A stretch of 32,000 nucleotides of DNA from Myxococcota bacterium. GTDB lineage: Bacteria > Myxococcota_A > Polyangia > Polyangiales > Sandaracinaceae. The stretch lies in the NCBI GenBank assembly GCA_036149055.1, contig JAYZQJ010000191.1:11716-43715 (forward strand), read 5' to 3'. Positions 3,707-22,833 of the stretch are shown here, in pieces. Position 1 is the stretch's first letter. Every line of letters begins with the position of its first letter. A program made the position numbers and the translations under genes. The notes under the pieces were generated by a model. It was not told the origin of the DNA. It made no database searches and was given only the letters and a program-made list of their open reading frames with translations.

Positions 3707-6220
<2,514 letters not shown>

Positions 6221-7345: not shown

Positions 7346-10300
7346 TGACGCCGCGGTACGACGTCGGGATCGTCGGCGCGTCGGTCGCCGGGTGCACCAC
7401 CGCGCTGGCGTGCGCGAAGGCGGGGGCGCGCGTGCTCCTGCTCGAGGCCGACCCGAACGAGGCGGCCGCGCAGCACGTCGGAGCGTGGCTCCACCCGGAC
7501 GCGATGGACGCGCTCGAGGGCCTCGGCGTCGACCTCGTGCCCCCCGTGGGCTACCCGACCGGCAAGGGCTACGTGCTCTTCCCGGAGGACGGCACCGAGG
7601 CCGTGGTCCTGCCGTACTCGGTGGGCCGCTTCGGCTTCTCGCTCCCGCAGGGCCTCCTGGTCGAGACGCTGCGGCAGCACTGCGACGCCGACGAGGCGGT
7701 GACCCTCCGCTCGCCGGTCCGCGCGAGCCGCGTCGACGCGGGTACGCTCACCTGGCAGGAGCGCGGCCGCCCGCGCAGCGCCCGGGTCGAGCACGTCGTC
7801 TTCGCCGCCGGCGCGGACGTGCAGCCGATCAAGCGCGGCGCCGGCTACGTCTTCGGCGCGATCGAGCGGCCGCCGACGCACCGCATCGCCAGCCTCGATC
7901 TGGTGGGCGCGACGCTGCCCTTCGAGGGCTTCCGACACGTCTTCGTCGGCGGCTGCGGCGTCGCGATCGCGCACCGCGTCGGCCCGGCCACCGTGCGCCT
8001 GGCGCTCGACGTGCCGCTCGGCTTCCGCGTGCCCCGCGAGGGCGGCGTGCAGCTGCTCGAGGCCTACGCGCCGTCGCTGCCGGAGGAGCTCGCCCTGCCC
8101 TTCGCCGAGGCGCTGCGCCGCGGGGCGCCGTCCTGGTCGCACGGCCGCATCCAGCCGCGCGGCAACATGATCCGCGGGGGCATCGCGCGGGTCGGCGACG
8201 CCGCCGGCAGCCTGCACCCGCTCACCGCGGCCGGCCCGAGCCTCGCGATCGCCGACGGCGTCGCCTTCGCCGAGTCCCGCTCGCCGGCCTCGTTCGCGCG
8301 CAAGCGCCGCCGCGACACCCGCCTCCCCGAGGCGATCGCGATCGGGCTCGCCGAGGTGCTGACCGACGAGGCGCCGGAGAGCGTCGCCATCCGCCGCGCG
8401 ATGTACAACATGTGGCGCGACGATCCGGGCGAGCGGCTCCGCACGATGAGCTACATCGCCGGCGAGAACGAGGGGCTGCTGCGCTTCGGCGGCTCGTGTC
8501 TCCGGGTCATGCTCTCGAGCGCGGCCCGGGTGGCGAAGAGCGGCGCCCGCGGCGAGCTGCGCCACGCGCACCGGACCGGCTCGGCGCTGCTCGAGCGCAT
8601 CGGCTGGATGGTCGGCGGCGCGCTCGGCTGGAGCGATCTCCTGCCCGACGCCTTCGCGGAGAAGCTCGAGGCGCGCGGCACCACGCGCTACCTCGGCGCG
8701 CTGCACCACACCGGCGAGGCCGAGGTCGTCGGGCTGCCCGCCCGGAGCGGCGGCGCGTCGTCGATCCAGACCGCGCTCGCGCGCGGCGCCCAGGCGCTGG
8801 TGAACGAGCAGGCCGAGGACGGCTCCTTCGAGGGGGAGGTCGTCTGGTGCCCGATGCTCGCCGCGCAGTACGTGCTCGCCTCGCACGTGATGGACCGGCC
8901 GATCGATCCCGAGCGTCGGCGGCTGCTCCTGCGTCACTTCGAGGACACGTTGCTGCCCGGCGGCGCGTGGGGCCTGCACGAGAAGAGCGAGCCCTACCTC
9001 TTCGTCACCACGCTCGTGTACGTCGCGGCCCGGCTCCTCGGGGTCGACAAGGACGACGCGCTCATCCGCGAGGCGAAGGCGTTCATCCGTCAGGAGGGCG
9101 GCGCGGTCGGCATCCCGAGCTGGGGCAAGCTCTGGCTCGCGCTCGTCGATCTCTACGCCTGGGAGGGCGTCAACCCGGTGGTGCCCGAGCTCTGGGCGAC
9201 GCCGCGCTGGCTGCCGATGCACCCGAGCCGCTACTACTGCCACACCCGGCTCATCTACATGGGCATGGCCGCGCTCTACGGCGGGCGCGTGCGGCGCGAA
9301 GCGAACGCGACCATCCGCTGCGTGCGCGACGAGATCTTCCTCCAGCCGTACGGCGAGATCGACTTCGACGCCGCGCGCGAGACCCTCCGCGAGGGGGACG
9401 TGCACGACGCGCCGGGGCCGCTCCTGAAGCTGAGCTACCGGCTCCTCACCCGCTTCGAGCAGGCCAAGTCCGACGGCCTCCGGCAGAGGCTCCTCGGCGA
9501 GCTGCGCGACAAGATCCGCTACGAGCTCCGCTCGACGCACTACACCTGCATCTCGCCGGTCAGCGGCATGCTCGGCCTCCTCGCGCTCCACGCGAACGAC
9601 CCGTCGGATCCCGACCTCGTGAAGGGGCTCGAGGGCTTCGAGGGCTGGATCTGGGAGGACGAGCAGGAGGGCGCGCGCATCGCCGGCGCCCGGAGCGCGA
9701 CCTGGGACACCGCGTTCGCCGCCCAGGCGCTCGCGGCGGCCGCGGGTCACGTGGACGTCAGCGCGCCCCTCGAGCGCGCCGACGCCTTCCTCGCCAGCCA
9801 GCAGATCCGGCGCGGCACCGGCCTCGAGGGGCAGCACGACCGGCTCGACCCGACCGGCGGCTACTGCTTCGCCGGCGTCTGGCACGGCTGGCCGGTCAGC
9901 GACTGCACCGCCGAGGCGATGCTCGCGCGGCTCCACAACCCGGCCGCGAAGCCGAGCGCCCGCGCGATGGAGCAGGCGGCCGAGTTCGTGCTGCGCTGCC
10001 AGAACGCCGACGGCGGCTTCGGGAGCTACGAGGCGCGGCGGCACGCGCGGCTCTCGATCGACTGGCTCAACCCGAGCGAGATGTTCGGCGCGTGCATGAC
10101 CGAGCGCTCCTACGTCGAGTGCACCGCGTCGTGCGTGCAGGGCCTCGCCGCCTTCCGCGAGCGCTACCCGGACCGGCTCCGCGGGCGCGTCGACGCGGCG
10201 ATCGAGGCCGGCGTCGCCCGCCTCCGCGCCGAGCAGCGCGCCGACGGCTCCTTCGAGGGCATGTGGGGCGTCAACTTCATCTACGGGACGCTCTTCGGGG

Positions 10301-10740
10301 TCCGCGGGCTGCTGGCCGGCGGCGTGCCCTGCACCGACCCGCAGATCCGCCGCGCCTGCGCGTGGCTGCTCGAGCGCCAGCGCCCCGACGGCGGCTGGGG
10401 CGAGCACTTCGCGAGCGTGCTCGAGGGCCGCTACGTGGAGCACGAGGAGGCGCAGGTCGTGCAGACCGCGTGGGCGCTGACCTGCCTGCTCGAGGCCGAG
10501 GAGCCGGACTTCGCGGCGCTCGAGCGCGCGGCCCGGCTGCTCGCCCGGACCCAGCGGTCCGACGGAACGTGGCCGAAGCAGGATCCCGAGGGGATCTTCT
10601 TCCACACCGCGCTCCTCGAGTACCGCCTCTACCGCGCATACTTCCCGCCCTGGGCGCTCGGGCTCTTCGCGAGCCGCGCCGAGGCCAGGGCCGCCTGGAC
10701 CGAAGGGGGCCGCGCCGAGCGCCGCCCCGCCATCGTCTGA
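7345..10740 (+). CDS. Fusion protein: squalene monooxygenase (epoxidase)-like flavoprotein domain (aa 1-430) + oxidosqualene cyclase (aa 472-1131)
   Basis: This is the real part of track ORF 3658-10740, starting at ATG 7345 (GTG 7342 is an alternative). N-terminal domain motifs: YDVGIVGASVAGC, GAWLHPDA, RVGDAAGSLHPLTAAGPS (compare SQLE GE.LQPGG and GDA.NMRHPLTGGGMT). C-terminal domain motifs: the catalytic GWPVSDCTAEAM (Asp at 9901-9903), WDTAFAAQAL, and QW repeats (EQRADGSFEGMWGVNFIYGT, ERQRPDGGWGEHF, RTQRSDGTWPKQ). The C-terminus YRAYFPPWALG is close to eukaryotic lanosterol synthase. Confidence 0.93.
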   Translation: MTPRYDVGIVGASVAGCTTALACAKAGARVLLLEADPNEAAAQHVGAWLHPDAMDALEGLGVDLVPPVGYPTGKGYVLFPEDGTEAVVLPYSVGRFGFSLPQGLLVETLRQHCDADEAVTLRSPVRASRVDAGTLTWQERGRPRSARVEHVVFAAGADVQPIKRGAGYVFGAIERPPTHRIASLDLVGATLPFEGFRHVFVGGCGVAIAHRVGPATVRLALDVPLGFRVPREGGVQLLEAYAPSLPEELALPFAEALRRGAPSWSHGRIQPRGNMIRGGIARVGDAAGSLHPLTAAGPSLAIADGVAFAESRSPASFARKRRRDTRLPEAIAIGLAEVLTDEAPESVAIRRAMYNMWRDDPGERLRTMSYIAGENEGLLRFGGSCLRVMLSSAARVAKSGARGELRHAHRTGSALLERIGWMVGGALGWSDLLPDAFAEKLEARGTTRYLGALHHTGEAEVVGLPARSGGASSIQTALARGAQALVNEQAEDGSFEGEVVWCPMLAAQYVLASHVMDRPIDPERRRLLLRHFEDTLLPGGAWGLHEKSEPYLFVTTLVYVAARLLGVDKDDALIREAKAFIRQEGGAVGIPSWGKLWLALVDLYAWEGVNPVVPELWATPRWLPMHPSRYYCHTRLIYMGMAALYGGRVRREANATIRCVRDEIFLQPYGEIDFDAARETLREGDVHDAPGPLLKLSYRLLTRFEQAKSDGLRQRLLGELRDKIRYELRSTHYTCISPVSGMLGLLALHANDPSDPDLVKGLEGFEGWIWEDEQEGARIAGARSATWDTAFAAQALAAAAGHVDVSAPLERADAFLASQQIRRGTGLEGQHDRLDPTGGYCFAGVWHGWPVSDCTAEAMLARLHNPAAKPSARAMEQAAEFVLRCQNADGGFGSYEARRHARLSIDWLNPSEMFGACMTERSYVECTASCVQGLAAFRERYPDRLRGRVDAAIEAGVARLRAEQRADGSFEGMWGVNFIYGTLFGVRGLLAGGVPCTDPQIRRACAWLLERQRPDGGWGEHFASVLEGRYVEHEEAQVVQTAWALTCLLEAEEPDFAALERAARLLARTQRSDGTWPKQDPEGIFFHTALLEYRLYRAYFPPWALGLFASRAEARAAWTEGGRAERRPAIV

Positions 10741-10773
10741 GAATTCTGTCGTCGAGCCGTACCGATGCAGTCC

Positions 10774-10779
10774 AAGGAG
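10774..10779 (+). promoter_or_regulatory. Shine-Dalgarno (AAGGAG) for the SQMO-repeat-SQS gene
   Basis: AAGGAG lies 5 nt upstream of ATG 10785, in the 44-nt gap after the OSC stop codon (10738-10740). Confidence 0.6.
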
Positions 10780-10784
10780 CAGTC

Positions 10785-13700
10785 ATGAACCGCAGCAGCT
10801 ACGACGTCGTCGTCGTCGGAGCCGGGCCCGCCGGGTGCGGCGCCGCGCTCGCTCACGCCCGCCGGGGCGCCTCCGTGCTCGTGGTCGAGGCCGACCCTCG
10901 CGCCGCGAAGCGCTTCGCCGGCGAGTGGCTCCACCCCACCGGCGTCGCCGTGCTCGACGCGCTCCGGGTCGGCCGCCTCGAGCAGGCGAGGGCCCGCGCG
11001 GGCTACGGCTTCGTCATCTTCCCCGACGACGGCAGCGAGCCGATCGAGATGGCCTACACCGAGGGCGTCGCGCTGAGCGCCGAGCACCACGCGATCGTCG
11101 AGGCGATGCGCGACGCGCTCCGGGCCGAGGACCGGGTGGAGCTGCTCATCGGAGGCCGCGCGGTGCGGGTCGCCGACGGCGTCATCCGGATCGAGGACAA
11201 GAAGAGCGGCCGCGCGACCGACGTGCGCGCCGGACGGATCATCGGCGCCGACGGCCGCAAGTCGACGGTGCGCGAGAGCCTCGGCGTCCCGACCCAGAAG
11301 AGCGCGCCGCTGAGCTACATGGCCTCGGTCGAGCTGCGCGACGTGGAGCTGCCCTTCGAGGGCTTCGGTCACCTCGTCCTCGGCGGACCCGGCCCGGCGC
11401 TCTTCTACCGCATCGGCGACGGGCTCATCCGCGGCTGCCTCGACGTGCCGATCGCGCTCGGCCCGAACGCGCGCTCGCTCGAGGCGCTCTGGGACGGCTT
11501 CGGCCCGGTGATGCCGGAGTCGATGCGCCCCGCGCTCCGCGCCGCCCTCGAGCGCGGCCCGAGCGGCTGGGCGATCAACCAGTTCCGCCCCCGCGCGCTC
11601 TTCGGCGCCGGCGACGTGCGGCTGGTCGGCGACGCGGTCGGCCACGTGCACCCGATGACGGCCACCGGCATGACGCTCGGCCTGCTCGACGCCAAGGCCC
11701 TCGCCGAGAGCGACAGCCTGGAGTCCTACGCCAAGGCGCGCCGGAGCTACGTGCCGGAGCTGCTGTCGAACGCGCTCTACCACTGCTTCCGCCGTGACGA
11801 CCCGAGCGCGACCGCGATCCGCCGCGCGATGTTCGAGACGCTCCGCAAGGAGCCCCGCGAGCGCCGCCGCACGATGGACATCCTCGCCGGCACCGATCAG
11901 AGCCGGCGCAGCTTCGGCTCGGCCTTCCTCCGCATCGCCGCCCGCGCGGTCGGCGGCTCCCTCGAGAGCGAGCGCCCGCTGTCGCGCCTCATGAGCTTCG
12001 GCGAGTGGATGCAGTGGCCCGCCGCGCTGGTGGTGCCGAGCGGCCTCGACGCGAGCGTGCGCGCCCAGAGCAGCACGACGCACCCGATCCCGCAGCTGGC
12101 CAAGCTCACGCCGACCGCGGCCCCCGTGGCCCCGCCCGAGACGCCCGGCGGGAAGGCGCCGGCGCTCGACGTGCCGCTCACCCCGGCCCTCGAGCGCGGC
12201 ACCGCGGCGCTCCTCCGGGAGCTCGAGCGGCTCGCGATGCAGTTCGGCGAGGTGCCCGACGCGACCCTGGCCGGCCCGGCGCTCTCCTGCATCCGCGCGA
12301 TCACCGCGACCCGGATGCGCCTCGGCATGGCCGCGCGCATGACGCTCGGGCGTCGCCGCCTCGCCACCGAGGGCTTCCCCCGCCTCCTCGACGCCGAGCC
12401 GCACGCGCGGCACCTGGCGGAGCTCTGCCTGGTGCTCCTCGACGGCGCGCCGTGGGACGAGCAGCCGATCGCGAGCCTCGACGAGGGCGTGCGCGCGCTG
12501 CTCGACTGCCAGACCGAGAGCGGCGGCTTCGCGCGCTCCCGGGGCGTCGCCTCCTCGCCCGGCGCGGCCGGAGAGCTCGAGCTGACCGCGCTCGCGTGTC
12601 GGGCGCTCGAGGTGGTCGCGCGCAAGGGCAAGAGCGACGCCGACCTCGGCCGCGCGCTCGAGCGGGCCGCCGACTGGGTCGTCTCGCTGCAGGGCGACGA
12701 CGGCGACTTCGGCGGCGACGTCTCGCGCACCGCCTGGGCGATCGAGGCCCTCATCGCGGCCGGCGTGCACCCCGGCGATCCGGCGGCGCGTCGCGCGGTC
12801 CGCTGGCTCTCGGTGGCGCTCGACCCGAGCGGCGATCCGGTCGAGGCGGCGCGCGCCGTCCGGGCGCTCCTCGCCGCCGGCGTCTCCTCCAACGAGGCGA
12901 TCGTCTCCGCGGCCCGCGGCCTCGCGTCGCTCGAGGAGACCGACTGGCGCGTGGCGCGCGAGGTGGTCGAGGCGCTCGCCGCCTGTGAGGTCCGCCGGGC
13001 CGAGCGGCCGCAGAAGCGCGCCCGTCGCCGCAAGCGCGGCAGCGACAAGTCGCCGATCGGGCCCGAGCTGAAGGCGGACTGGAAGTTCTGCCGCCAGGCG
13101 CTCGGCGAGGTCTCGCGCACCTTCGCGCGGCCGATCGAGATGCTCCCGCCGAAGCTCGAGGTCGCCGTCTCGCTCGGCTACCTCCTCTGCCGCATCGCCG
13201 ACACCGTCGAGGACCACGTCGCGGTGCCCTTCGAGGTGAAGGACGATCTGTTCGCGAAGCTCTGCGCGGTGCTCGAGCACGGCGCGGATCCGGCGCCCTT
13301 CGCCGAGGCGTTCACCCACATCGAGGGCGACGACGCGGAGCTGTCCCTGGCCCGCGAGCTGCCGCGCGTGATGCGGGTCTACGACGCGCAGGACGAGGCG
13401 ACGAAGAAGGCGTGCACGCGCTGGGTCACCGAGATGGCCCGCGGCATGAGCCTCTACACGCACCGCAAGCCCGAGGCCGACGGCGTCGCGGCGCTGCACA
13501 CGATCCCGGACCTCGAGCGCTACTGCTACTACGTGGCGGGCACGGTCGGGCACCTCCTGACCGACCTCTTCGTCGACGCGATCGGCGAGGACCCCGAGGG
13601 CGCGCTCGCGATCGCGATGCGGGACCACGCGGAGGGCTTCGCGACCGGCCTGCAGCTCACGAACATCCTGAAGGACGTGACCGACGACCTCGCGCGCGGG

Positions 13701-14105
13701 GTCTCGTTCATCCCGCGCACCGAGTGCGCGCGGCAGGGCTTCTCGGTCGCCGATCTCGCCGACCCGAAGGTGCGCGACCGGGCCCACGCCGCCGTCTCGC
13801 CGGTCTTCGACATCGCCAAGGAGCGGCTCGACGCGGCGCTCGAGTACTCGCTGCTCATCCCGTCCGAGCACCGCCAGATCCGGCTCTTCTGCCTGCTGCC
13901 GCTCTGGATGGCCGGCCGCACCCTGGCGCTCGGCCGCGGCAACGACGCGATGTTCGAGCCCGACCTGCCGGTCAAGATCACCCGGAGCGAGGTCGAGTCG
14001 CTGATCGCCGAGTGCATGACGCTCGCCGAGGACGACGACGCGCTGCGCGCTCGCTACGCGCGCCTGTTCGAGCCGGCCCAGGGCCAGCGGCGGGAGATGC
14101 GATGA
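10785..14105 (+). CDS. Three-domain fusion: squalene monooxygenase (aa 1-420) + terpene-cyclase/prenyltransferase-type alpha-helical repeat domain (aa 465-735) + squalene synthase (farnesyl-diphosphate farnesyltransferase, aa 760-1106)
   Basis: This is the real part of track ORF 7392-14105, starting at ATG 10785 with an SD. SQMO motifs: VVVVGAGPAGC, GEWLHPTG, GADGRKSTVRE, LVGDAVGHVHPMTATGMT. Middle-domain repeats: LLDCQTESGGF and WVVSLQGDDGDFGG. SQS motifs: VSRTFARPI, YLLCRIADTVED (first Asp-rich), YCYYVAGTVGHLL, GLQLTNILKDVTDDLARGVSFIP (second Asp-rich). Confidence 0.92.
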   Translation: MNRSSYDVVVVGAGPAGCGAALAHARRGASVLVVEADPRAAKRFAGEWLHPTGVAVLDALRVGRLEQARARAGYGFVIFPDDGSEPIEMAYTEGVALSAEHHAIVEAMRDALRAEDRVELLIGGRAVRVADGVIRIEDKKSGRATDVRAGRIIGADGRKSTVRESLGVPTQKSAPLSYMASVELRDVELPFEGFGHLVLGGPGPALFYRIGDGLIRGCLDVPIALGPNARSLEALWDGFGPVMPESMRPALRAALERGPSGWAINQFRPRALFGAGDVRLVGDAVGHVHPMTATGMTLGLLDAKALAESDSLESYAKARRSYVPELLSNALYHCFRRDDPSATAIRRAMFETLRKEPRERRRTMDILAGTDQSRRSFGSAFLRIAARAVGGSLESERPLSRLMSFGEWMQWPAALVVPSGLDASVRAQSSTTHPIPQLAKLTPTAAPVAPPETPGGKAPALDVPLTPALERGTAALLRELERLAMQFGEVPDATLAGPALSCIRAITATRMRLGMAARMTLGRRRLATEGFPRLLDAEPHARHLAELCLVLLDGAPWDEQPIASLDEGVRALLDCQTESGGFARSRGVASSPGAAGELELTALACRALEVVARKGKSDADLGRALERAADWVVSLQGDDGDFGGDVSRTAWAIEALIAAGVHPGDPAARRAVRWLSVALDPSGDPVEAARAVRALLAAGVSSNEAIVSAARGLASLEETDWRVAREVVEALAACEVRRAERPQKRARRRKRGSDKSPIGPELKADWKFCRQALGEVSRTFARPIEMLPPKLEVAVSLGYLLCRIADTVEDHVAVPFEVKDDLFAKLCAVLEHGADPAPFAEAFTHIEGDDAELSLARELPRVMRVYDAQDEATKKACTRWVTEMARGMSLYTHRKPEADGVAALHTIPDLERYCYYVAGTVGHLLTDLFVDAIGEDPEGALAIAMRDHAEGFATGLQLTNILKDVTDDLARGVSFIPRTECARQGFSVADLADPKVRDRAHAAVSPVFDIAKERLDAALEYSLLIPSEHRQIRLFCLLPLWMAGRTLALGRGNDAMFEPDLPVKITRSEVESLIAECMTLAEDDDALRARYARLFEPAQGQRREMR

Positions 14106-14809
14106 TGGGCTTCGAGCTTCCGATGATGGACAACCTCTGGTTCCACGTCGCGATCGGCATCACGCTCTTCGTCGACGCGGTCCTCCTGGTGTTCCTCAGC
14201 TGGGCCTACCGCTCGCCGCGCTTCGCGAAGTACCACATTCGCAAGCCGATGGAGATGCGGGTCAGCAAGTCGAATTACCGCTGGACGGTGGGCGTCATCG
14301 GCCTGCTGTCGAGCAGCTCGACGGTGGTGCTCATCTACGGGCTCGCCCCGCTGACCATCAGCGAGACGACGACCACGCCCTGGTGGCTCATCGCGCTGCA
14401 GTTCTTCGGCGTGCTCTTCGTCTACGACTTCGCCTACTACTTCATGCATCGGACGATGCATCACCGGAAGCTCATGCCGCTGGTGCACGAGATCCATCAC
14501 CGCGTCCGCGTGCCGAGCGCGCTCGAGAGCCTCTACCTCTCGCCGGTCGAGATGCTCGCGGGCCTGCTGCTGCTGATGGCGGTGACGTGGGCGCTCGGCC
14601 CGGTGCACTGGATCGCCTTCGTGGCGGTCTTCTTCCTCTACTCGACGCTGCACATCGTCATCCACTCGGGGATGACCTTCCCGCACCCGGTCTTCCGCGT
14701 GATGAACCACCTCACGATGAAGCACCACAAGCACCACCTGAACAAGCACGGTCACAACTTCGCGTCCGTGACCCCGCTGCCGGACATCGTGTTCGGCACC
14801 TCTGTCTGA
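14102..14809 (+). CDS. Fatty acid hydroxylase superfamily membrane di-iron enzyme (sterol desaturase / C-4 methyl oxidase family, ERG3/ERG25-like)
   Basis: The 235-aa product has about 4 TM segments. His boxes are HRTMHH, HEIHHR and HHKHHLNKHGH. Its ATG overlaps the previous stop (ATGA at 14102-14105). Confidence 0.88.
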   Translation: MMGFELPMMDNLWFHVAIGITLFVDAVLLVFLSWAYRSPRFAKYHIRKPMEMRVSKSNYRWTVGVIGLLSSSSTVVLIYGLAPLTISETTTTPWWLIALQFFGVLFVYDFAYYFMHRTMHHRKLMPLVHEIHHRVRVPSALESLYLSPVEMLAGLLLLMAVTWALGPVHWIAFVAVFFLYSTLHIVIHSGMTFPHPVFRVMNHLTMKHHKHHLNKHGHNFASVTPLPDIVFGTSV

Positions 14810-14816
14810 GGCAGTC

Positions 14817-16487
14817 ATGTTCCTTCGCAGACCCGAAGTCCCGGAAGGGCTCAAGCCCGCGCCGGAGCTGTCCGGCGGGCTCCCGCTCGTCGGTCACACC
14901 GTCGAGTTCGTGCGCGACACGATCGGCATGCTCGAGCGCGCCCACCACGAGCTCGGCGAGGTCGCCGCGGTGCGCGTCGCCGGCCGCCGCATGGTCGCCC
15001 TCTTCGGCCCCGAGGCCCACGAGGCGGTCTTCCGCGCGAAGGACCAGGTCCTCGACCCGCGCGAGGCCTACAAGATCATGACCCCCGTCTTCGGCGAGGG
15101 CATGGTCTACGACGCCTCGCCCGAGAAGATGAACGAGCAGTTCAAGATGCTGCTCCCGGCGCTCAAGGACCGCCGCATGCGCACCTACGGGGAGACCATC
15201 CTCGACGAGGTCGAGCGCAGCGTCGCGGACTGGGGGGACGAGGGCGAGATCGACATCGTCGACTACTGCCGCGTCCTGACGAACTTCACCTCCTCGCGCT
15301 GCCTCATCGGCGAGGAGTTCCGCGAGCGCATGACCGACGAGTTCGCGCGCATCTACCACGACCTCGAGCGCGGCGTGACGCCCCTCGCCTACATCGACGC
15401 GAACCTCCCGATCCCGAGCTTCAAGAAGCGGGACGCGGCCCGGGTCCGGCTCGTGAAGCTGATCGGCGCGATCATCGACGAGCGCGCCCGGACCGGCCGG
15501 ACCGGTGAGGACTTCCTCCAGACCCTGATGGAGGCCCGCTACCAGGACGGCGCGGCGCTCACCCACGACGAGATCACCGGGATGCTGCTCGCGGCGATGT
15601 TCGCCGGGCACCACACCAGCTCGGTCACCACCGCGTGGGCCCTCATCGAGCTCTGCAAGAACCCCGCGTACATGCGGCGCGTGGTCGCGGAGCTCGACGA
15701 GACCTACGGCGAGAGCGGCCAGACCGACTACCAGTCGCTCCGCAACATCCCGGTCACCGAGCACGCGGTGAAGGAGACCCTGCGGCTCTACCCGCCGCTC
15801 TTCCTGCTCATCCGGGTGGTGCAGAAGGACTGGACCTTCAAGGGGCACCACCTGCCGAAGGGCACCTGGATCCTCGTGTCACCGACCGTCTCGCAGCGCG
15901 ACCGCGAGGTCTTCACCCACCCTTACACCTTCGACCCCGACCGCTTCGCCGAGCCGCGCAACGAGGGCAAGAAGGACTGGGCGTTCATCGCCTTCGGCGG
16001 CGGCCGCCACAAGTGCCTGGGCAACGCGTTCGCGCTCCTCCAGGTCAAGGCGATCCTCGGCACGCTCCTGCGGCGCTACGAGTTCGAGCTGGTCGACCCG
16101 AAGGTGAAGCCGGACTTCCACGGCCTCGTCATCGGCCCCTCCGAGCCCTGCCGGCTGCGCTACCGCCGCCGCGAGGAGAAGGTCGCCGCCCGCCCGGCCC
16201 CGAAGGTCGAGGAGGCGCCGAAGCCGGCGCCGAAGAAGAAGGAGGAGCGAGTCCAGCTCCGGATCGCGCTCGACCTCGATCTCTGCCAGGGCCACGCGGT
16301 CTGCGTGAACGAGGCGCCGGGCGTCTTCTACGTCTCGGACGAGACCGGCAAGGTCGCCCTCCACACCGATCGCCCCGACCCGAGCCAGAACGACGCCGTG
16401 CGCGCCGCGGCCGACTACTGCCCGCAGCGCGTCATCCAGGTCCACGAAGAAGACGAAGCGCCCCTCACCTGCCCCGTGGCGCACTGA
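14817..16487 (+). CDS. cyp51: Sterol 14alpha-demethylase (CYP51) fused to a C-terminal 3Fe-4S-type ferredoxin domain
   Basis: CYP51 signatures present: YKIMTPVFGEGMVYDA (B' helix), MFAGHHTSS (helix I), ETLRLYPP, and heme loop FGGGRHKCLGNAF (Cys codon 16014-16016). It is very similar by eye to M. tuberculosis CYP51. A Lys/Pro/Ala linker (16164-16250) precedes the ferredoxin domain (16251-16484), which carries CQGHAVC...CP (CxxHxxC...CP). Confidence 0.95.
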   Translation: MFLRRPEVPEGLKPAPELSGGLPLVGHTVEFVRDTIGMLERAHHELGEVAAVRVAGRRMVALFGPEAHEAVFRAKDQVLDPREAYKIMTPVFGEGMVYDASPEKMNEQFKMLLPALKDRRMRTYGETILDEVERSVADWGDEGEIDIVDYCRVLTNFTSSRCLIGEEFRERMTDEFARIYHDLERGVTPLAYIDANLPIPSFKKRDAARVRLVKLIGAIIDERARTGRTGEDFLQTLMEARYQDGAALTHDEITGMLLAAMFAGHHTSSVTTAWALIELCKNPAYMRRVVAELDETYGESGQTDYQSLRNIPVTEHAVKETLRLYPPLFLLIRVVQKDWTFKGHHLPKGTWILVSPTVSQRDREVFTHPYTFDPDRFAEPRNEGKKDWAFIAFGGGRHKCLGNAFALLQVKAILGTLLRRYEFELVDPKVKPDFHGLVIGPSEPCRLRYRRREEKVAARPAPKVEEAPKPAPKKKEERVQLRIALDLDLCQGHAVCVNEAPGVFYVSDETGKVALHTDRPDPSQNDAVRAAADYCPQRVIQVHEEDEAPLTCPVAH

Positions 16488-16501
16488 AGAGAGAGCAGCA
16501 C

Positions 16502-18076
16502 ATGCAGAACGTCGCCATCGAGCTCGAGAGCACCCCCGAGGTCATCGACTGCCGCGAGCCGGCCACCCACGCGCCCCTCGGCAAGGTGCCGGTGGACGGG
16601 CCGGACGTGGTCCGCGCCAAGGTCGCGCGGGCGCGCGTCGCGCAGAAGAGCTGGGGGGAGAGCACCTTCTCGGAGCGCCGCCGCCTCCTCAAGACCATCC
16701 TCGCCCACGTGCTCGACCACGCGGACGAGCTCTGCGAGGTCGTGGTCCGCGACGCCGGCAAGACCCGCGAGAACGCGGTGATGGGCGAGATCTGGCCGGT
16801 CTGCGAGAAGCTCCGCTGGACGATCGCGAACGGCGAGAAGCACCTCCGCCCCGAGCGCATGTCGAGCGGCCTGTTCCTGCACAAGAAGGCCACCGTCCTC
16901 TACCAGCCGCTCGGCGTCATCGGCGTGATCTGCCCGTGGAACTACCCGCTGCAGAACGTGCTCGGGCCGACCATCCCGGCGCTCTTCGCGGGCAACGCGG
17001 TGGTGGTGAAGGTCTCCGAGCAGGTCGCGTGGTCGTCGGCGCGCATGCAGCGCATCTTCGACGAGGCGTTCGACGCGCTCGGCTACCCGAAGGACACCGT
17101 GCAGATCGTCAACGGCTACGGCGAGACCGGCGCCGCGCTGGTCCGCTCGGGCGTCGACAAGGTGATCTTCACCGGCTCGGTCCCGAACGGCCGGAGGATC
17201 ATCGAGGGCAGCGTCGAGAACATCACGCCCGTCATCCTCGAGCTCGGCGGCAAGGACGCGTTCATCGTCTGCGAGGACGCCCACATGGAGCAGGCGGTGC
17301 ACGCCGCGCTCACCGGCGTGTTCATCGCGGCCGGCCAGAACTGCATGGCCGCCGAGCGCGTGCTCGTGCACGCGAAGGTCTACGACGACTTCGTCGGCCG
17401 CCTCGTGAGCGAGGTGAAGAAGCTCCGCGTGGGCGACGCGCCGCAGGGCGCGGTCGACGTGGGCGCGCTCGTCTCGCCGCAGCAGGTCGAGATCGTCGAG
17501 CGGCTCGTGAACGACGCGGTCGAGAGCGGCGCGCGGGTCCTCGTCGGCGGCAAGCGCGGCGATCGCCCGGGCCAGTTCTTCGAGCCCACCGTGCTCGTCG
17601 ACGTCACCCCGGACATGGCGATCATGAACGAGGAGGTCTTCGGCCCGGTGATGTGCGTGCACCGCTACGAGACCGACGACGAGGCGATCGAGATCGCCAA
17701 CGGCACCCGCTTCGGCCTCGGCTCCACCGTGATGAGCCGCTCGGGCACGCGCGCCCGCCGCCTCGCCGAGCGCCTCCGCGTCGGCTCCTGCACCATCAAC
17801 GACTTCGGCTTCACCTACATGGCGCAGGACCTGCCCTTCGGCGGCGTGGACGCCAGCGGCTTCGGTCGGCTCAACGGCCGCGAGGGCCTGCGAGGCTGCA
17901 CCAACCAGAAGGCCATCCTCGAGGATCGGCTGCCGCTGCACATGCCGGCCAAGCTCTACCCGGTGAAGCCCGAGGTCTACCCGCTCGTGCGCGGGGTGCT
18001 CCGGACGCTCTACCAGCCGACCCTGACCGGCCGCGCCAAGGCGGTGGTCGAGCTCGCCAAGAACCTCCGCCGATGA
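16502..18076 (+). CDS. Aldehyde dehydrogenase family protein
   Basis: This is the real part of track ORF 15635-18076, starting at ATG 16502. ALDH motifs present: CPWNYP, FTGS, ELGGKD (catalytic Glu), GQNCMAAER (catalytic Cys), EEVFGPV. It has a C-terminal extension of about 50 aa. Confidence 0.9.
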   Translation: MQNVAIELESTPEVIDCREPATHAPLGKVPVDGPDVVRAKVARARVAQKSWGESTFSERRRLLKTILAHVLDHADELCEVVVRDAGKTRENAVMGEIWPVCEKLRWTIANGEKHLRPERMSSGLFLHKKATVLYQPLGVIGVICPWNYPLQNVLGPTIPALFAGNAVVVKVSEQVAWSSARMQRIFDEAFDALGYPKDTVQIVNGYGETGAALVRSGVDKVIFTGSVPNGRRIIEGSVENITPVILELGGKDAFIVCEDAHMEQAVHAALTGVFIAAGQNCMAAERVLVHAKVYDDFVGRLVSEVKKLRVGDAPQGAVDVGALVSPQQVEIVERLVNDAVESGARVLVGGKRGDRPGQFFEPTVLVDVTPDMAIMNEEVFGPVMCVHRYETDDEAIEIANGTRFGLGSTVMSRSGTRARRLAERLRVGSCTINDFGFTYMAQDLPFGGVDASGFGRLNGREGLRGCTNQKAILEDRLPLHMPAKLYPVKPEVYPLVRGVLRTLYQPTLTGRAKAVVELAKNLRR

Positions 18077-19677
18077 TCGAGACGTTCGACTACGTCGTGG
18101 TCGGCGGGGGCTCCGCCGGCTGCATCGTCGCGGCCGAGCTGAGCGAGGATCCGCGCGTCCGGGTGCTGCTCCTCGAGCGCGGGGACGACGCGCAGGAGCA
18201 CCCCGAGACGCTCCGCGCCGACGGCTACAAGGACGCGTTCGCGAACGACGCGCTCGTGCTCGAGCGCTTCAGCGTGCACGCCGATCGCTGGGGTGACCGC
18301 CGGCTCTTCATGGGCTCGGGGCACGGCCTCGGCGGCAGCGGCAACATTAACGGCATGGTCTACACCCGCGGCGCAAAGGTCGACTACGACGCCTTCCCCG
18401 AGGGCTGGCGCTGGGCCGACGTGGTGCCCGACTTCGAGCGCATCGAGGCGCAGCTCCGCCCGCGCCCCCGCGCGGCGACGGCCTTCACCGAGGTCTGCCT
18501 CGACGCGGCCGAGGAGGCGGGCTTCGCGCGCTCGAAGGACCTGAACGACGGCGACCTCGGCGGGGTGCTCGGCTACGAGCACATGAACTACGAGGGTGAC
18601 GACCGGCGCAGCAGCTACGTCGCCTTCCTCCTGCCCGCGCTCGACCGCGGCAACCTCGTGGTCCGCACCAACGCGAAGGTCGAGCGCCTCACCGTCGACG
18701 AGCGGGGCGTCACCGGCGTGCGCTACGCCTGGGACGGCGGCGACCACGAGGCGCGGGCGGTCCGCGAGGTGGCGATGTGCGCCGGCGCCCTCGAGACGCC
18801 GCGCCTGCTGATGCTCTCGGGCATCGGGCCGAGCGGCGCGCTCCGGCACGTGGGCCTGCCCGCGGTGCACGAGGTGCCCGGGGTGGGCGAGAACCTCCAC
18901 GACCACCCGAACGTGAGCCTCTTCTTCCGCGGTCAGCGCGAGGTCGACTGCAACTACCCGCAGCTCTACGGCTTCCACCGCGCGAACGAGGCGACCGACC
19001 TGCCCGAGGGCGCGAGCGACACCTGCTACGTCTTCTACCCGGCCCGCAGCTCGCTCAAGGAAGCGATGATGCGCATGCTGCCGACGCTGGTGCTGCCGGA
19101 GCCGCTCTACGATCTGCCCGCGATGCCCAAGCTGGTGCGCGGCGGCGTGCGCCTCGCCTTCGGGCCGCGCGCGATGCGAGAGGCGGTCAAGCGCGTCTAC
19201 GGCATCGTCGTCATCCTCGGCAAGCCCAAGAGCCGCGGCCGGCTCCGGCTCACCGCCTCGAGCCCGAGCGCCCCGGCGGCGATCGACCCGGGCTACTTCG
19301 CCGACCCCGAGGACATGGAGACGATGATCCGCGGCGTCGAGCGCGCCCGCCGCATCGCCCGCGCGCAGCCGCTCCGGTCGTGGGGCAACACGGAGCTCTT
19401 CCCCGGCCTGCTCGGGCGCTCGCGCGACGCGATCGAGGGCTGGATCCGGCAGAACGTGATGACCACGTATCACTACGCCGGCACCTGCGCGATGGGCGAC
19501 AACGGCGCGAGCGTGTGCGATCCGCGCCTCCGGGTGCGGGGCGTGCGCGGCCTCCGGATCGCCGACGCCTCGGCCATCCCGTTCACGCCGGTCTCGGCCC
19601 TCAACGCCCCCTCCATGCTGGTCGGCCACCGCGCCGCCCGCTTCATGCGCGAAGAGTCCCCAAGCGTGGACGCCTGA
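18073..19677 (+). CDS. GMC-family FAD oxidoreductase (choline dehydrogenase / alcohol oxidase-like)
   Basis: This is the real part of track ORF 16936-19677. Its ATG overlaps the ALDH stop (ATGA at 18073-18076). Motifs present: DYVVVGGGSAGCIVAAELSED...LLLERG, GGSGNINGMVYTRG, LMLSGIGP, YHYAGTCAMG (active-site His), IADASAIP. Confidence 0.92.
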   Translation: MIETFDYVVVGGGSAGCIVAAELSEDPRVRVLLLERGDDAQEHPETLRADGYKDAFANDALVLERFSVHADRWGDRRLFMGSGHGLGGSGNINGMVYTRGAKVDYDAFPEGWRWADVVPDFERIEAQLRPRPRAATAFTEVCLDAAEEAGFARSKDLNDGDLGGVLGYEHMNYEGDDRRSSYVAFLLPALDRGNLVVRTNAKVERLTVDERGVTGVRYAWDGGDHEARAVREVAMCAGALETPRLLMLSGIGPSGALRHVGLPAVHEVPGVGENLHDHPNVSLFFRGQREVDCNYPQLYGFHRANEATDLPEGASDTCYVFYPARSSLKEAMMRMLPTLVLPEPLYDLPAMPKLVRGGVRLAFGPRAMREAVKRVYGIVVILGKPKSRGRLRLTASSPSAPAAIDPGYFADPEDMETMIRGVERARRIARAQPLRSWGNTELFPGLLGRSRDAIEGWIRQNVMTTYHYAGTCAMGDNGASVCDPRLRVRGVRGLRIADASAIPFTPVSALNAPSMLVGHRAARFMREESPSVDA

Positions 19678-19695: not shown

Positions 19696-21387
19696 ATGCT
19701 CCCAGTACGGGGAGAGGCCGTGGGGGTAGAGGACGGAGTCGCGACATCCTGGAGAGAGCCCGCCCTTCGGCGCGCGATCGACTGGGTGCTCGCGCTCGGC
19801 TCGCTCGTCGCGCTGATGACGGCGGGCCTCGTCTGGGCTCAGGACCCGGCGGGGCTGCTCGCGCCTCCGTACCTCGCGATGATGCTCGCGTTCGGTGGCG
19901 TGCTGCTCGCGCGTCTCGGGCGCCTCTCGTTCTCCGCTCGGGCCCGGGTCTTCTCCGCGTCCATCGTGCTGATGGGCGGGCTGGCGCTGCTCAACTTCGG
20001 CCTCGCGCCGGGGCCCTTCGTGGCCCTGGCCCTGGCCTCGGTCACCGCGGGCGCCTTCCTCGGGAGGCTCGCGCTCGGGGTGACGCTCGCCGGCGGGACC
20101 CTCTCGGTGATCGCGGCGGGCTGGCTCGTCACCCGCGGGCACGTCGCGCCGGTCAGCGCCTCGTTCGTCGCGGGCGACATGCAGCACTGGGTCCGGGCCG
20201 CGGTCGAGTACGCGCTCTTCGGCGGCAGCGTCGCCGCGGTCCTCATGCAGCTCGTCGTGCAGCTCGAGCGGCGCGAGGTCGCCAAGGCGCGCGCGCAGCG
20301 GCTCGAGGCTCTCGGGCGATTGGCCGGCGGGGTCGCCCACGACTTCAACAACGCGCTCCAGGTGATCTTCGTCTGGCGCGAGCTGCTCGCCGAGCACGAC
20401 GACGACGAGGTGCGGGAGGCGATGGAGGAGATCCACGCCTCGGCCGAGCAGGCGAGCCGCCTCACCGCGCAGCTCCTCGCCTTCGGCCGTCGCGACGTGT
20501 GGACGCCCCGCGCGCTGACGCTCGCCGAGGAGGTCTCGCGCTGGAGCGGCTCGGTGCGGCGGCTGCTCCCCGAGGACGTCGCGCTGGAGGTCCGGACCAC
20601 GGCCTCCCCGACCGTGATGTGCGACCCCGGGCAGCTCGAGCAGATCCTGCTCAACCTCGTGGTCAACGCCCGTGACGCGATGCGGGGCGGCGGACGCGTC
20701 CTCATCGCGCTCGACGAGGTGGACGCCGACGAGGTCCCGGGGCGCGCGCTGCCGGCGGCGCGGATCGCGCGGCTGAGGGTCGAAGACGACGGCCCCGGCA
20801 TGCCCGAGGACGTGCGTCAGCGGGTGTTCGAGCCGTTCTTCACCACCAAGGACGAGCTGGGCACCGGGCTCGGCCTGTCGATCGTCTACGCGGCGGTGCA
20901 GCGCGCGGGCGGCGCGGTGAGCGTCAGCTCCACGCCGGGCGAGGGGACGACCTTCTCGGTGTTCCTCCCGTGCGTCGCCGCGGAGGTGAGCGAGGAGGCG
21001 GAGAGGGCCTCGCGCCCGGCGCCGCACACGCACGAGGGCGTCGTCCTGCTCGCCGAGGACGAGGCCAACATTCGCAGGAGCCTCGCCGGCTGTCTGCGCG
21101 ACGCCGGCTACACGGTGCTCGAGGCGGAGGACGGCGACCGCGCGATGGCCCAGGTGGAGTCGCACGACGGGCCGATCGACGTGCTCTGCACCGACGGCGT
21201 GATGCCCGGCGTGTCCACCCACAGCGTCATCCACCGCTACCTGGAGCTGCACCCGGAGGGGCGCGTCCTGATCTGCTCCGGACACGTCGACGAGGAGCTG
21301 GTCCGGCGGGATCTCGACGGGGATCACCTCGAGCTGCTCCCCAAGCCCTTCGCGCCCAGCGAGCTCTTGAGGCGGCTGCGCGGTTGA
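19696..21387 (+). CDS. Hybrid sensor histidine kinase (multi-TM N-terminus, HisKA, HATPase_c, C-terminal REC)
   Basis: The N-terminal 190 aa or so are hydrophobic (5-6 TM) with no sizeable periplasmic loop. Kinase motifs: H-box GGVAHDFNNALQ, N-box LLNLVVNARDAM, G1 EDDGPGM, G2 GTGLGLS. REC motifs: VLLAEDE, LCTDGVMPG, PKPF. The first codons have low GC3, so GTG 19720 (after GGGGAG) is an alternative start. Confidence 0.88.
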   Translation: MLPVRGEAVGVEDGVATSWREPALRRAIDWVLALGSLVALMTAGLVWAQDPAGLLAPPYLAMMLAFGGVLLARLGRLSFSARARVFSASIVLMGGLALLNFGLAPGPFVALALASVTAGAFLGRLALGVTLAGGTLSVIAAGWLVTRGHVAPVSASFVAGDMQHWVRAAVEYALFGGSVAAVLMQLVVQLERREVAKARAQRLEALGRLAGGVAHDFNNALQVIFVWRELLAEHDDDEVREAMEEIHASAEQASRLTAQLLAFGRRDVWTPRALTLAEEVSRWSGSVRRLLPEDVALEVRTTASPTVMCDPGQLEQILLNLVVNARDAMRGGGRVLIALDEVDADEVPGRALPAARIARLRVEDDGPGMPEDVRQRVFEPFFTTKDELGTGLGLSIVYAAVQRAGGAVSVSSTPGEGTTFSVFLPCVAAEVSEEAERASRPAPHTHEGVVLLAEDEANIRRSLAGCLRDAGYTVLEAEDGDRAMAQVESHDGPIDVLCTDGVMPGVSTHSVIHRYLELHPEGRVLICSGHVDEELVRRDLDGDHLELLPKPFAPSELLRRLRG

Positions 21388-21390
21388 TCG

Positions 21391-22833
21391 ATGCTCCGGG
21401 CGCCCGTGCGCATCGTCTGCATCGCCCTCCTGCTCGTCGCCTGTGGACCCTCGCGACCTCCGCTGACCCCGGAGACGCGCGCCGCCTATCACGACCTGCG
21501 CGTGTCCCCCGAGCGCTGCCGCGAGCCGGCGACCCCGGTGACCCGCGCCCAGGCGGTGCGCGACCTCGGGGTGCTCGAGCGGGTGCTGACCCGCGGCTAC
21601 GCGGGCTACGGCCTCCACCCGCCCGAGCGGGTCGGCCGCGCCATCGCCGAGGCGCGCGCGTCGCTCCCCGACCAGACCCTGCCGCCGCGCGCCTTCCGGG
21701 AGCACGTGTTCCGTCACGTCGCCTTCCTCGACGACAACCACGTCGGGCTCTGGTTCTACGACGACGAGGGCCGTCACTTCCGGGCCACCAGCGAGCACCG
21801 GCAGGCCTACGTCGCCGACGCCCGGCTCACCCGGACCGACGCAGGCTTCGTCGACGCCGAGGGCCGGCGCCTCCTCGGCTGCGGAGACCACGCGCCCGCC
21901 TCGATCCTCCGCCCGGTCGCCGCGCCCCCCGCGATCACCTGGGCGCCGATCCTGCTCTCGCCGCTGCCGATCGAGTCGATCTCGTGCGCTCTCTCGGGCG
22001 ACGTCGAGGTGACCTACCCGCTGCGCCGGCTCTCGCTCGGCCGCGGCGGCGGCGCGCCCTACGAGCGCCTCGAGGCCCCGTTCCCGTGGCTGCGCGTGCG
22101 CACGCTGGCCTACAGCCGGCGAGGCGCGCTCGAGGAGTTCGTCGCCAGCGCGACCGAGGTGCGCGACGCCCCGGTCGTCGTGCTCGATCTCCGCCGGGCG
22201 GGCGGCGGCAGCGATCGTTTCCTCGTGCGCTGGTTCCGCGACCTGACCTCGGCGGACCTCTCGTACTGGGCGGTCGAGGACGTGCGGAGCGAGGTCAACC
22301 TCCAGGGCGCGCTCAACTTCTGGGGCTGCGTGCGCTCCTTCAGCGGGGCGGACGCGGGCGGCCGCGAGTGGCTCGACGCGCGGGTCGGGCGGGCCGAGCG
22401 CGAGCTCGACGAGGCGATGCGCCAGCGCGGCCCCTTCCGCGACGTCCTGCCGGATCGCGTGACCCTCGACGGCCGGGCGCCGGGCCCGTTCGGCGGCCGG
22501 CTCATCGTGCTCGTCGACCGCGGCTGCGCGAGCGCCTGCGAGACCAGCGTGATGCTCGCCCGCCAGATCCCCGGCGCGATCGTCGTCGGCGAGAACACCG
22601 AGGGCACGATGAAGGTCGGCGAGCTCCGCTGGTACCGCCTGCCCGAGAGCGGCCTCTGGCTCAGCGCCGGCACCCGCGTCCACCGCGACCCCAACCCGAA
22701 CGGCGGCTTCGCCGAGGGCCGCGGCTTCCTCCCCGATCTCTGGCTCGACGGCCGCGACGTCGACGGCACCGTGCGCGCCCTCGCCGAGTGCCTGACCGGG
22801 CCCGAGCCCGAGGCCTGCGTCCCGGCCCGATGA
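21391..22833 (+). CDS. Lipoprotein with peptidase S41 (tail-specific protease)-like domain
   Basis: It begins MLRAPVRIVCIALLLVA|CG (lipobox). VVLDLRRAGGGS and LIVLVDRGCASACETS resemble the S41 core (VLVD..SASASE). It starts 3 nt after the kinase stop. Confidence 0.75.
   Translation: MLRAPVRIVCIALLLVACGPSRPPLTPETRAAYHDLRVSPERCREPATPVTRAQAVRDLGVLERVLTRGYAGYGLHPPERVGRAIAEARASLPDQTLPPRAFREHVFRHVAFLDDNHVGLWFYDDEGRHFRATSEHRQAYVADARLTRTDAGFVDAEGRRLLGCGDHAPASILRPVAAPPAITWAPILLSPLPIESISCALSGDVEVTYPLRRLSLGRGGGAPYERLEAPFPWLRVRTLAYSRRGALEEFVASATEVRDAPVVVLDLRRAGGGSDRFLVRWFRDLTSADLSYWAVEDVRSEVNLQGALNFWGCVRSFSGADAGGREWLDARVGRAERELDEAMRQRGPFRDVLPDRVTLDGRAPGPFGGRLIVLVDRGCASACETSVMLARQIPGAIVVGENTEGTMKVGELRWYRLPESGLWLSAGTRVHRDPNPNGGFAEGRGFLPDLWLDGRDVDGTVRALAECLTGPEPEACVPAR

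Follow-up and report, generated by a model that had tools for sequence, protein, structure and literature searches.

Demethylation at C-4 is the step that most clearly divides bacterial sterol synthesis (SdmAB) from that of eukaryotes (ERG25/26/27) and for this reason is central to the debate on eukaryotic sterol inheritance from myxobacteria. Bacterial C-4 demethylation is known to be accomplished by SdmAB in methanotrophs, Calothrix, S. amylolyticus and M. rosea, and by SdmABC in E. salina (PMC12004948, PMC10202945). Elsewhere the reaction is catalyzed by ERG25/26/27 in eukaryotes and by the cytochrome P450 CYP5122A1 in Leishmania. It has been claimed from bioinformatic analyses that some myxobacteria, and also Dadabacteria, contain ERG25-like, ERG26-like and ERG27-analogue genes syntenic with sterol genes, with SdmAB and ERG25-27 reported to co-occur; that report makes no mention of GMC or aldehyde dehydrogenase (ALDH) partners (Hoshino & Gaucher 2021; PMC8237579). 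No eukaryote-type C-4 enzymes were found in cultured E. salina, S. amylolyticus and M. rosea (Lee et al., Welander laboratory; PMC12004948, PMC10202945). Here, a stretch of 32,000 nucleotides from a Myxococcota bacterium of the Sandaracinaceae (assembly GCA_036149055.1, contig JAYZQJ010000191.1, positions 11,716 to 43,715; hereafter the window) was analyzed. The 3' end of a sterol operon in the window encodes a small FAH-family protein, a CYP51-ferredoxin fusion (CYP51-Fdx), an ALDH and a GMC flavoprotein; the operon also encodes HMG-CoA reductase (HMGR) fused to SdmB, Bsr, squalene epoxidase (SE) fused to oxidosqualene cyclase (OSC), and SE joined to squalene synthase (SQS). The trio of FAH, ALDH and GMC proteins most probably converts a sterol methyl group to the carboxylate, with the C-4 methyl group favored, and most likely stands in for the Rieske oxygenase SdmA.

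The FAH protein matched PF04116 above the gathering threshold (75.2 bits, the cut-off being 31) over profile positions 3-132 of 132. The eight-histidine di-iron motif (HX3-4H, HX2HH, HX2HH) is intact, comprising H116, H120, H129, H132, H133, H208, H211 and H212, and is invariant across 27 homologues. The AF2 model is all-helical with a pLDDT of 90. A hidden Markov model of the FAH family was compared with four reference proteins, each confirmed as an exact database entry, and scored 77.9 bits with MSMO1_HUMAN, 42.4 with ERG25_YEAST, 28.9 with CH25H_HUMAN and 22.7 with SC5D_HUMAN. Within this set the top BLAST match was MSMO1 for every FAH subgroup. By these scores the FAH protein is closer to MSMO1/ERG25 than to SC5D or CH25H. 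The protein is 235 residues long compared with ~293-309 residues for MSMO1 and ERG25, and a search of NCBIfam with it returned no match even at E 0.01. Homologues are few: 28 clusters were recovered from a k-mer-indexed protein database, all of 218-249 residues and all derived from metagenomes or metagenome-assembled genomes (MAGs). Weak matches near three sterol clusters (L032, L074 and L029; loci are cited by such numbers throughout) were to an unrelated 422-residue OlsE-like protein and were discarded.

The conservation of the trio was investigated at other loci, including 72 sterol loci obtained by an OSC-centred scan of species genomes and mapped with the window proteins. Trio orthologues are adjacent on other contigs in other orders and with other flanking genes, the FAH proteins being 52-73% identical and the ALDH and GMC proteins 68-77% identical to those of the window. 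At least four gene orders were found, in several lineages, near CYP51-Fdx, OSC, SdmB, ERG24 or sterol methyltransferase genes. The order FAH-CYP51Fdx-ALDH-GMC is that of the window, L014, L016 and L092; ALDH-GMC-FAH-CYP51Fdx forms a stand-alone unit among housekeeping and signalling genes at L001 and L087; ALDH-GMC-FAH occurs without CYP51 at L002-L004 and L095; and ALDH-GMC-x-x-FAH is separated by 13-16 kb from a sterol cluster lacking SdmA on the single contig of the overlapping loci L171 and L020. Both ALDH and GMC genes are present at 10 of the 12 group-1 FAH loci that span 5 kb or more, the GMC gene is paired with an ALDH gene at every related locus, and all GMC homologues at least 66% identical for which the contig could be cross-identified reside on an FAH-bearing contig. 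The JAEZBP MAG (L004) also carries, at L019, an OSC 74% identical to that of the window. When metagenomes were scanned with an alignment of FAH proteins, even FAH homologues as distant as 34-41% identity proved to be linked to orthologues of ALDH and GMC, themselves 52-58% identical. ALDH orthologues of other lineages, tied either to FAH or to a homologue of SdmA, are 52-77% identical. The grouping of the trio is far beyond chance. Since the set survives several rearrangements, the results indicate that FAH, ALDH and GMC constitute a functional module.

Linkage to sterol genes also holds in an independent lineage, of which two soil loci (L139 and L130) contain genes for OSC, SdmB, sterol methyltransferase, a GAF-GGDEF protein, FAH, ALDH, GMC, an FMN-dehydrogenase and ERG24, with no SdmA. 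The sterol methyltransferase genes (Sterol_MT_C; L139:5740-6804, L130:4144-5229) would imply that this SdmA-less lineage produces side-chain-alkylated sterols. SdmB is encoded directly upstream of FAH in L132 and L136. At L142, L146, L157, L165, L166, L169 and L156 the FAH gene, together with ALDH-GMC, adjoins a gene for a 3Beta_HSD-family short-chain dehydrogenase/reductase (SDR; 213 bits), and the L156 row of 3β-HSD-like, FAH and adh_short genes is reminiscent of ERG26-ERG25-ERG27.

The SDR domain fused to HMGR has as its best NCBIfam model SdmB (NF052578, 303.6 bits, positions 2-327 of 328), ahead of HpnA, confirming the fusion of SDR and HMGR that had been noticed in a preliminary description of this DNA. 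This score does not reach the equivalog cut-off (600), nor do those of myxobacterial SdmB proteins encoded within clusters, and both the NAD-binding motif GAAGHLG and the Tyr-x3-Lys motif YVHSK are intact. In sister clusters a Rieske gene located between sdmB and bsr encodes SdmA (NF052579, 421.6 bits); no gap exists at that position in the window. A tblastn search with SdmA yielded no match in the window, and no Rieske gene is located in the window or in the 10 kb to either side (~52 kb in total). Among non-redundant loci, SdmA and SdmB without FAH were found at 24 and SdmB and FAH without SdmA at five (L020 entering the latter class once L171 is included); none has both SdmA and FAH. The best 120 SdmA matches, all at least 64% identical, include none from the nine annotated trio-bearing assemblies (MEC75, GAB55, HBQ1, MEQ, RZO); as most matches lack an accession, this is no more than suggestive of an absence of SdmA from these assemblies. 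Intact SdmB accompanies the FAH trio genes in the window, L020/L171, L130, L132, L136 and L139. The HMGR-SdmB fusion is retained in most Sandaracinaceae-type clusters (L015, L018, L020-L029, L039).

The location of the ALDH-GMC pair at a locus picked blind as a GMC homologue (L172, 61% identical) bears on the substrate. The L172 operon reads Rieske-ALDH-GMC-YceI, with the pair (ALDH 56% and GMC 61% identical to those of the window) directly 3' of the Rieske gene. The Rieske protein belongs to the SdmA family, being 50% identical to cluster SdmA and having NF052579 (336 bits) as its sole NCBIfam match. The operon (L172:7282-12159, on the 458 kb JGI contig Ga0315912_10000023) has overlapping stops and starts and has neighbors with planctomycete-type PSD/PSCyt domains. 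From this arrangement, the two dehydrogenases seem to act with oxygenases of the SdmA type as well. Since the two unrelated oxygenase partners of the pair, FAH and SdmA, have oxidation of the sterol C-4 methyl group in common, the pair points to C-4. With SdmA as the only demethylation enzyme in E. coli, the 4-methylaldehyde intermediate was reported to build up (PMC10202945), a result that makes a dedicated ALDH biochemically sensible.

The P450 matched CYP51-Fdx of M. capsulatus (6mcw) over residues 16-544 with E 3e-160, compared with E 4e-123 for CYP51 of M. tuberculosis, and by sequence is a true CYP51-Fdx fusion. Catalytic residues of the ALDH are present (E247 within ELGGK and C281 within GQNCMAAE). 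The GMC protein has N- and C-terminal GMC domains (126 and 113 bits in Pfam), the FAD motif GGGSAG from residue 11 and an active-site H467 within TTYHYAGTCAMG. The structures nearest to it are of enzymes that oxidize primary alcohols, namely chloramphenicol oxidase CmO (8b7s, E 3e-68), alcohol oxidases and choline oxidases.

In the proposed pathway, the di-iron FAH protein would hydroxylate the C-4 methyl group in the manner of ERG25/MSMO1, possibly with electrons from the ferredoxin domain of the neighboring CYP51-Fdx. The FAD-dependent GMC protein would oxidize the 4-hydroxymethyl sterol to the 4-formyl sterol, which the NAD(P)-dependent ALDH would convert to the 4-carboxy sterol; the HMGR-fused SdmB would then catalyze 3-dehydrogenation with decarboxylation, followed by reduction of the 3-keto group. 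A ferredoxin-type electron supply is suggested by the location of the FAH gene, which in the marine group directly precedes CYP51-Fdx and in L169 directly follows the gene for an FNR-type reductase with a 2Fe-2S domain. We infer the position of the substrate methyl group at C-4, the division of the three oxidations and the electron donor from these gene relationships. Overall, split C-4 methyl oxidation by FAH, GMC and ALDH acting with SdmB is on balance probably the best explanation of the results. The division of labor among four proteins is that proposed in the preliminary description; it is supported in part and fares best among the explanations, on the grounds of the module, the likeness to MSMO1, the adjacency of SDR genes, the exclusivity with SdmA and the L172 operon, with the correction that the SDR is of the SdmB type and not ERG26. 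The same description had called the route a third solution to C-4 demethylation, a label that is inaccurate since SdmAB(C) variants and Leishmania CYP5122A1 are known and ERG25-27 homologues had been claimed in myxobacteria in 2021. A broader proposal, that GMC and ALDH complete an oxidation begun by either SdmA or a miniature ERG25-like hydroxylase, that such split routes are frequent in bacteria, and that the ERG25-like form displaced SdmA in marine Sandaracinaceae, is put forward tentatively, as possible rather than probable.

Several results weigh against the split pathway. The identity of the FAH protein with MSMO1 is only ~28-35%, in a comparison with four references rather than a proper phylogeny, and all carriers of the trio are uncultured. 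At nine FAH loci that span 8 kb or more (39-51% identical), neither an ALDH nor a GMC gene is found nearby. Eukaryotic ERG25 alone performs all three oxidations of the C-4 methyl group, for which reason a need for GMC and ALDH is presumed rather than evident. In L028 the SdmA gene is located on the contig away from its usual slot, and since the carriers are MAGs, SdmA could be encoded elsewhere in the genome. No match to ERG24 or ERG2 was obtained anywhere in the window or its 10 kb flanks. In the closest relatives of the window (L014 and L016) the trio accompanies an SdmB domain that survives only as a dead remnant, with GSFSA and PYxxSK lost. The HMGR-fused SdmB has suffered deletions in both (L014:5210-7429, L016:5037-7397), the remnant in L016 being split off as a separate open reading frame, and both clusters have ERG24 and ERG2. 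For these two relatives the division among four proteins therefore cannot apply in the form proposed, and the product in L014 and L016 may be an oxidized sterol or another decarboxylase may be used. Loci of the L169/L156 type encode TetR regulators, a transporter with an MMPL/sterol-sensing domain and a sulfotransferase, and have an SDR best described as OleD-like; this gene content fits uptake, modification or catabolism over biosynthesis. A TetR regulator, the FNR/2Fe-2S reductase, FAH, the 3β-HSD/OleD-like SDR and ALDH-GMC occur together at L169:8033-14005 and L156:1651-11541, with the transporter and the adh_short SDR as extras in L156 and the sulfotransferase and DctP in L169; these loci may be lipid or sterol uptake and modification islands.

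The same loci are an argument for a function at another sterol methyl group, either the C-26/27 end of the side chain or an angular methyl, with SdmA elsewhere acting at C-4 and hydroxylated or carboxylic sterols formed as end products or at the start of uptake and catabolism. The DctP, TetR, transporter and sulfotransferase genes joined there to FAH, SDR and ALDH-GMC have a catabolic or modifying look, the side-chain hydroxylase CH25H is detectably similar (28.9 bits) and of the same superfamily, myxobacterial sterols are known with unexplained extra oxidations (PMC12004948; nannosterols), and both the displaced SdmA of L028 and the retention of the trio in L014 and L016 despite a dead SdmB can be so explained. 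However, in every FAH subgroup MSMO1 and ERG25 clearly outscore CH25H, at 29 loci SdmB is accompanied by either FAH or SdmA and never by both, an SdmA homologue precedes the ALDH-GMC pair in L172, and trio-bearing annotated assemblies are missing from the best 120 SdmA matches, which together render another methyl group unlikely as the target. The L014 and L016 loci, which keep FAH, CYP51, ALDH, GMC, ERG24 and ERG2 after loss of the catalytic Ser and Tyr-x3-Lys of SdmB, as well as the stand-alone ALDH-GMC-FAH-CYP51Fdx units with no SDR nearby, would also be accounted for if the C-4 methyl group were oxidized in a tailoring branch that ends with a 4-hydroxymethyl or 4-carboxy sterol, or that employs a decarboxylase other than SdmB. 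Such a branch is distinctly improbable, given that an intact SdmB is kept with the trio in the window and the other loci listed above and that the gene row of L156 resembles ERG26-ERG25-ERG27.

The remaining explanations assign one or more members of the trio to other reactions. The order of ALDH before GMC mirrors betB-betA and alkH-alkJ, so that the pair, with or without FAH, could have come by chance into the operon and act on choline to form glycine betaine (BetA/BetB) or on fatty alcohols, alkanes or ether lipids in the manner of AlkJ/AlkH. The best-named NCBIfam relatives are indeed choline dehydrogenase and succinate-semialdehyde or betaine-aldehyde dehydrogenase, homologues are labeled choline dehydrogenase by JGI, the GMC family is large (4542 matches at E<=1e-60), and FAH relatives in L086 and L088 have non-sterol contexts. 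All BetA and BetB models, however, score far under their cut-offs, with the GMC protein at 254 against 732 (TIGR01810) and 313 against 605 (PRK02106) for BetA, and the ALDH at 344 against 668.6 (TIGR01804) and 333 against 593 (PRK13252) for BetB. The pair is translationally coupled inside a sterol operon and, across several lineages and gene orders, syntenic with FAH, CYP51, SdmB, OSC, sterol methyltransferase or an SdmA homologue. A non-sterol substrate is therefore very unlikely, and choline and betaine aldehyde, raised in the preliminary description as substrates that would speak against the pathway, were rejected. That description also considered a GMC enzyme acting on the 3β-hydroxyl group like cholesterol oxidase, a function for which no support was obtained: no cholesterol oxidase is among the best 60 of the 64 PDB matches at E<=1e-10, the cholesterol-oxidase model NF058674 was not matched, and the assignment was dropped. 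Least probable of all is that FAH serves as the sterol C-5 desaturase (the ERG3/SC5D equivalent) of a cholesterol-type pathway with ALDH and GMC as unrelated neighbors. Sandaracinus makes cholesterol and needs this enzyme (PMC12004948), the NCBI name is sterol desaturase family protein, and SC5D is detectably similar; yet among the sterol references the lowest score is that of SC5D (22.7 bits, with MSMO1 at 77.9), FAH has been inherited together with ALDH and GMC despite changes in gene order, and the C-5 desaturase of S. amylolyticus is encoded by an unlinked gene found by ERG3 homology, with no S. amylolyticus protein among the FAH homologues. Weighed together, the results continue to favor split C-4 oxidation by the trio and SdmB.

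The arrangement of the window is given in the table. The G+C content is 72%, spurious open reading frames were resolved by GC3 frame analysis, and genes were named by searches of Pfam, NCBIfam and PDB, after which a long string of co-directional genes on the plus strand remains. The FAH, ALDH and GMC genes reside where the preliminary description had placed them, around CYP51, and the ATGA overlap of the ALDH stop and GMC start (18073-18076) was confirmed. A second ATGA overlap joins the SQS stop and the FAH start (14102-14105), and the intergenic gaps are 7 bp between FAH and CYP51 and 14 bp between CYP51 and ALDH.

Table. Genes of the sterol operon and adjoining genes in the window, with predicted or candidate functions.
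Feature	Coordinates	Strand	Basis
HMG-CoA reductase (class II, NAD type) fused to SdmB-type SDR, predicted C-4 decarboxylase/3-ketoreductase	3707-6220	+	SDR domain ~5114-6220; Pfam HMG-CoA_red 328 bits and Epimerase/3Beta_HSD
Geranylgeranyl-reductase family, homologue of Bsr (bacterial sterol C-24 reductase)	6224-7345	+	TIGR02032 157 bits; same slot as Bsr in related clusters
Divergent squalene-epoxidase-like FAD domain fused to oxidosqualene cyclase	7345-10740	+	SQHop_cyclase_N 173 bits, SQHop_cyclase_C 183 bits; N-terminal SE, FAD_binding_3 weak
Squalene epoxidase, ~350-residue cyclase-like remnant and squalene synthase in a single protein	10785-14105	+	Pfam SE 68 bits, SQS_PSY 146 bits
Small FAH-family membrane di-iron enzyme (235 residues), candidate sterol C-4 methyl hydroxylase (ERG25/MSMO1-like)	14102-14809	+	PF04116 75 bits
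CYP51 (sterol 14α-demethylase) with C-terminal ferredoxin domain	14817-16487	+	PDB 6mcw E 3e-160; Pfam p450 and Fer4_13/Fer4_15
Aldehyde dehydrogenase, candidate 4-formyl to 4-carboxy sterol enzyme	16502-18076	+	Pfam Aldedh 462 bits
GMC flavoprotein alcohol dehydrogenase/oxidase, candidate 4-hydroxymethyl to 4-formyl sterol enzyme	18073-19677	+	GMC_oxred_N, GMC_oxred_C
Hybrid histidine kinase/response regulator	19696-21387	+	Pfam; directly downstream of GMC, co-directional
S41 peptidase	21391-22833	+	Pfam; co-directional, downstream of hybrid kinase

The hybrid kinase and S41 peptidase are context and not conserved with the module, being absent at other trio loci. The operon holds two squalene-epoxidase-like domains, the divergent one (7345-8778) fused to OSC and the other joined to SQS through the ~350-residue region (12045-13094), which has only weak terpene-cyclase (QW/α-α toroid) and SQHop_cyclase matches, suggesting a degenerate cyclase-like linker domain. 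The epoxidase (SMO) and OSC of S. amylolyticus are likewise encoded by a single gene, and Bsr was characterized in the same organism (PMC12004948). By its match to TIGR00532 (344 bits), the HMGR part is a class II enzyme of the 'degradative', NAD-dependent kind. Two slots occupied in relatives are empty in the window, that of ERG24 (C-14 reductase) between OSC and SE (10740-10785) and that of ERG2 (C-8 isomerase) after SQS (14102-14105).

Signalling genes flank the operon, with a response regulator-EAL gene upstream (2155-3441, minus strand) and the hybrid kinase downstream. In two lineages, sterol clusters thus have cyclic-di-GMP and two-component genes beside or within them; the GAF-GGDEF gene of L139 (6934-7899) resides between the sterol methyltransferase and FAH genes. 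Upstream of HMGR in L021-L027 a different GMC protein is encoded that is longer, 25% identical to that of the window and not its orthologue. This protein (615-660 residues; L021:1079-2926, also L022, L024, L026 and L027, minus strand) has in L021 a weak C-terminal match to NF058674, and a type 2 isopentenyl diphosphate isomerase accompanies it upstream of these SdmA-less clusters (L021, L022, L024, L026 and L027). The independent assemblies L005-L007 break ~114 bp upstream of the window start, and the region beyond it in L010 (10988-20597) encodes two MopE-like proteins, a 1938-residue protein with no domain match and a large polyketide synthase.

If the proposed pathway is correct, the sterol operons of myxobacteria would contain an ERG25-family oxygenase that acts alongside SdmB and to the exclusion of SdmA. 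Such an enzyme would blur the boundary between bacterial and eukaryotic sterol synthesis and would be a specific candidate for the role of bacterial relative of ERG25. The hybrid of an oxygenase family of eukaryotic type, the bacterial SdmB decarboxylase and two extra dehydrogenases would bear on a myxobacterial descent of eukaryotic ERG25. The use of GMC and ALDH would constitute a new build of the reaction in which two dehydrogenations replace two O2-dependent monooxygenations, and would therefore lower the demand for oxygen and reductant, of relevance to steranes and early-oxygen scenarios. Genome-based prediction of the producers of 4-desmethyl sterols among uncultured bacteria would also improve, since these lineages would be missed by searches restricted to SdmA or to strict ERG25 homology. 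The relation of bacterial to eukaryotic C-4 demethylation, a long-standing question, would become directly testable in the existing heterologous system.

A search of the literature revealed no report linking FAH, GMC and ALDH with bacterial sterol clusters, and neither the exclusivity of FAH and SdmA nor an SdmA-ALDH-GMC operon was found described. The AlkB-AlkJ-AlkH system of Pseudomonas putida GPo1 follows identical logic, with a membrane di-iron hydroxylase, a GMC alcohol dehydrogenase and an ALDH, the ALDH gene preceding that for GMC. AlkB, however, belongs to the FA_desaturase family (PF00487), acts on alkanes and has no linkage to sterol genes, whereas the window hydroxylase belongs to PF04116; the likeness is thus functional only. 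BetA and BetB are likewise a GMC and ALDH pair with the ALDH gene first and are the best-named NCBIfam relatives of the window pair, which scores far under the equivalog cut-offs and is surrounded by sterol genes rather than betI or betT. The eukaryotic ERG25/SMO (MSMO1)-ERG26/NSDHL-ERG27 complex employs the same oxygenase superfamily (FAH, PF04116, eight-histidine di-iron) and the same logic of oxidizing the methyl group to the carboxylate prior to 3-dehydrogenation and decarboxylation by an SDR of the 3β-HSD fold. In contrast, the window FAH is shorter and travels with GMC and ALDH, neither of which has a part in the eukaryotic pathway, and the SDR is of the SdmB type and fused to HMGR in place of ERG26 and ERG27. 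The window FAH family may overlap the ERG25 set of Hoshino & Gaucher. With the SdmA/SdmB(/SdmC) system (Lee et al. 2018; PMC10202945) the window shares an intact SdmB-type SDR and the architecture of the sister clusters, whereas the window and its 10 kb flanks encode FAH, GMC and ALDH instead of SdmA. Judged by sequence, the reaction would be a known one catalyzed by partly known enzyme families, and what appears new is the conserved combination of enzymes.

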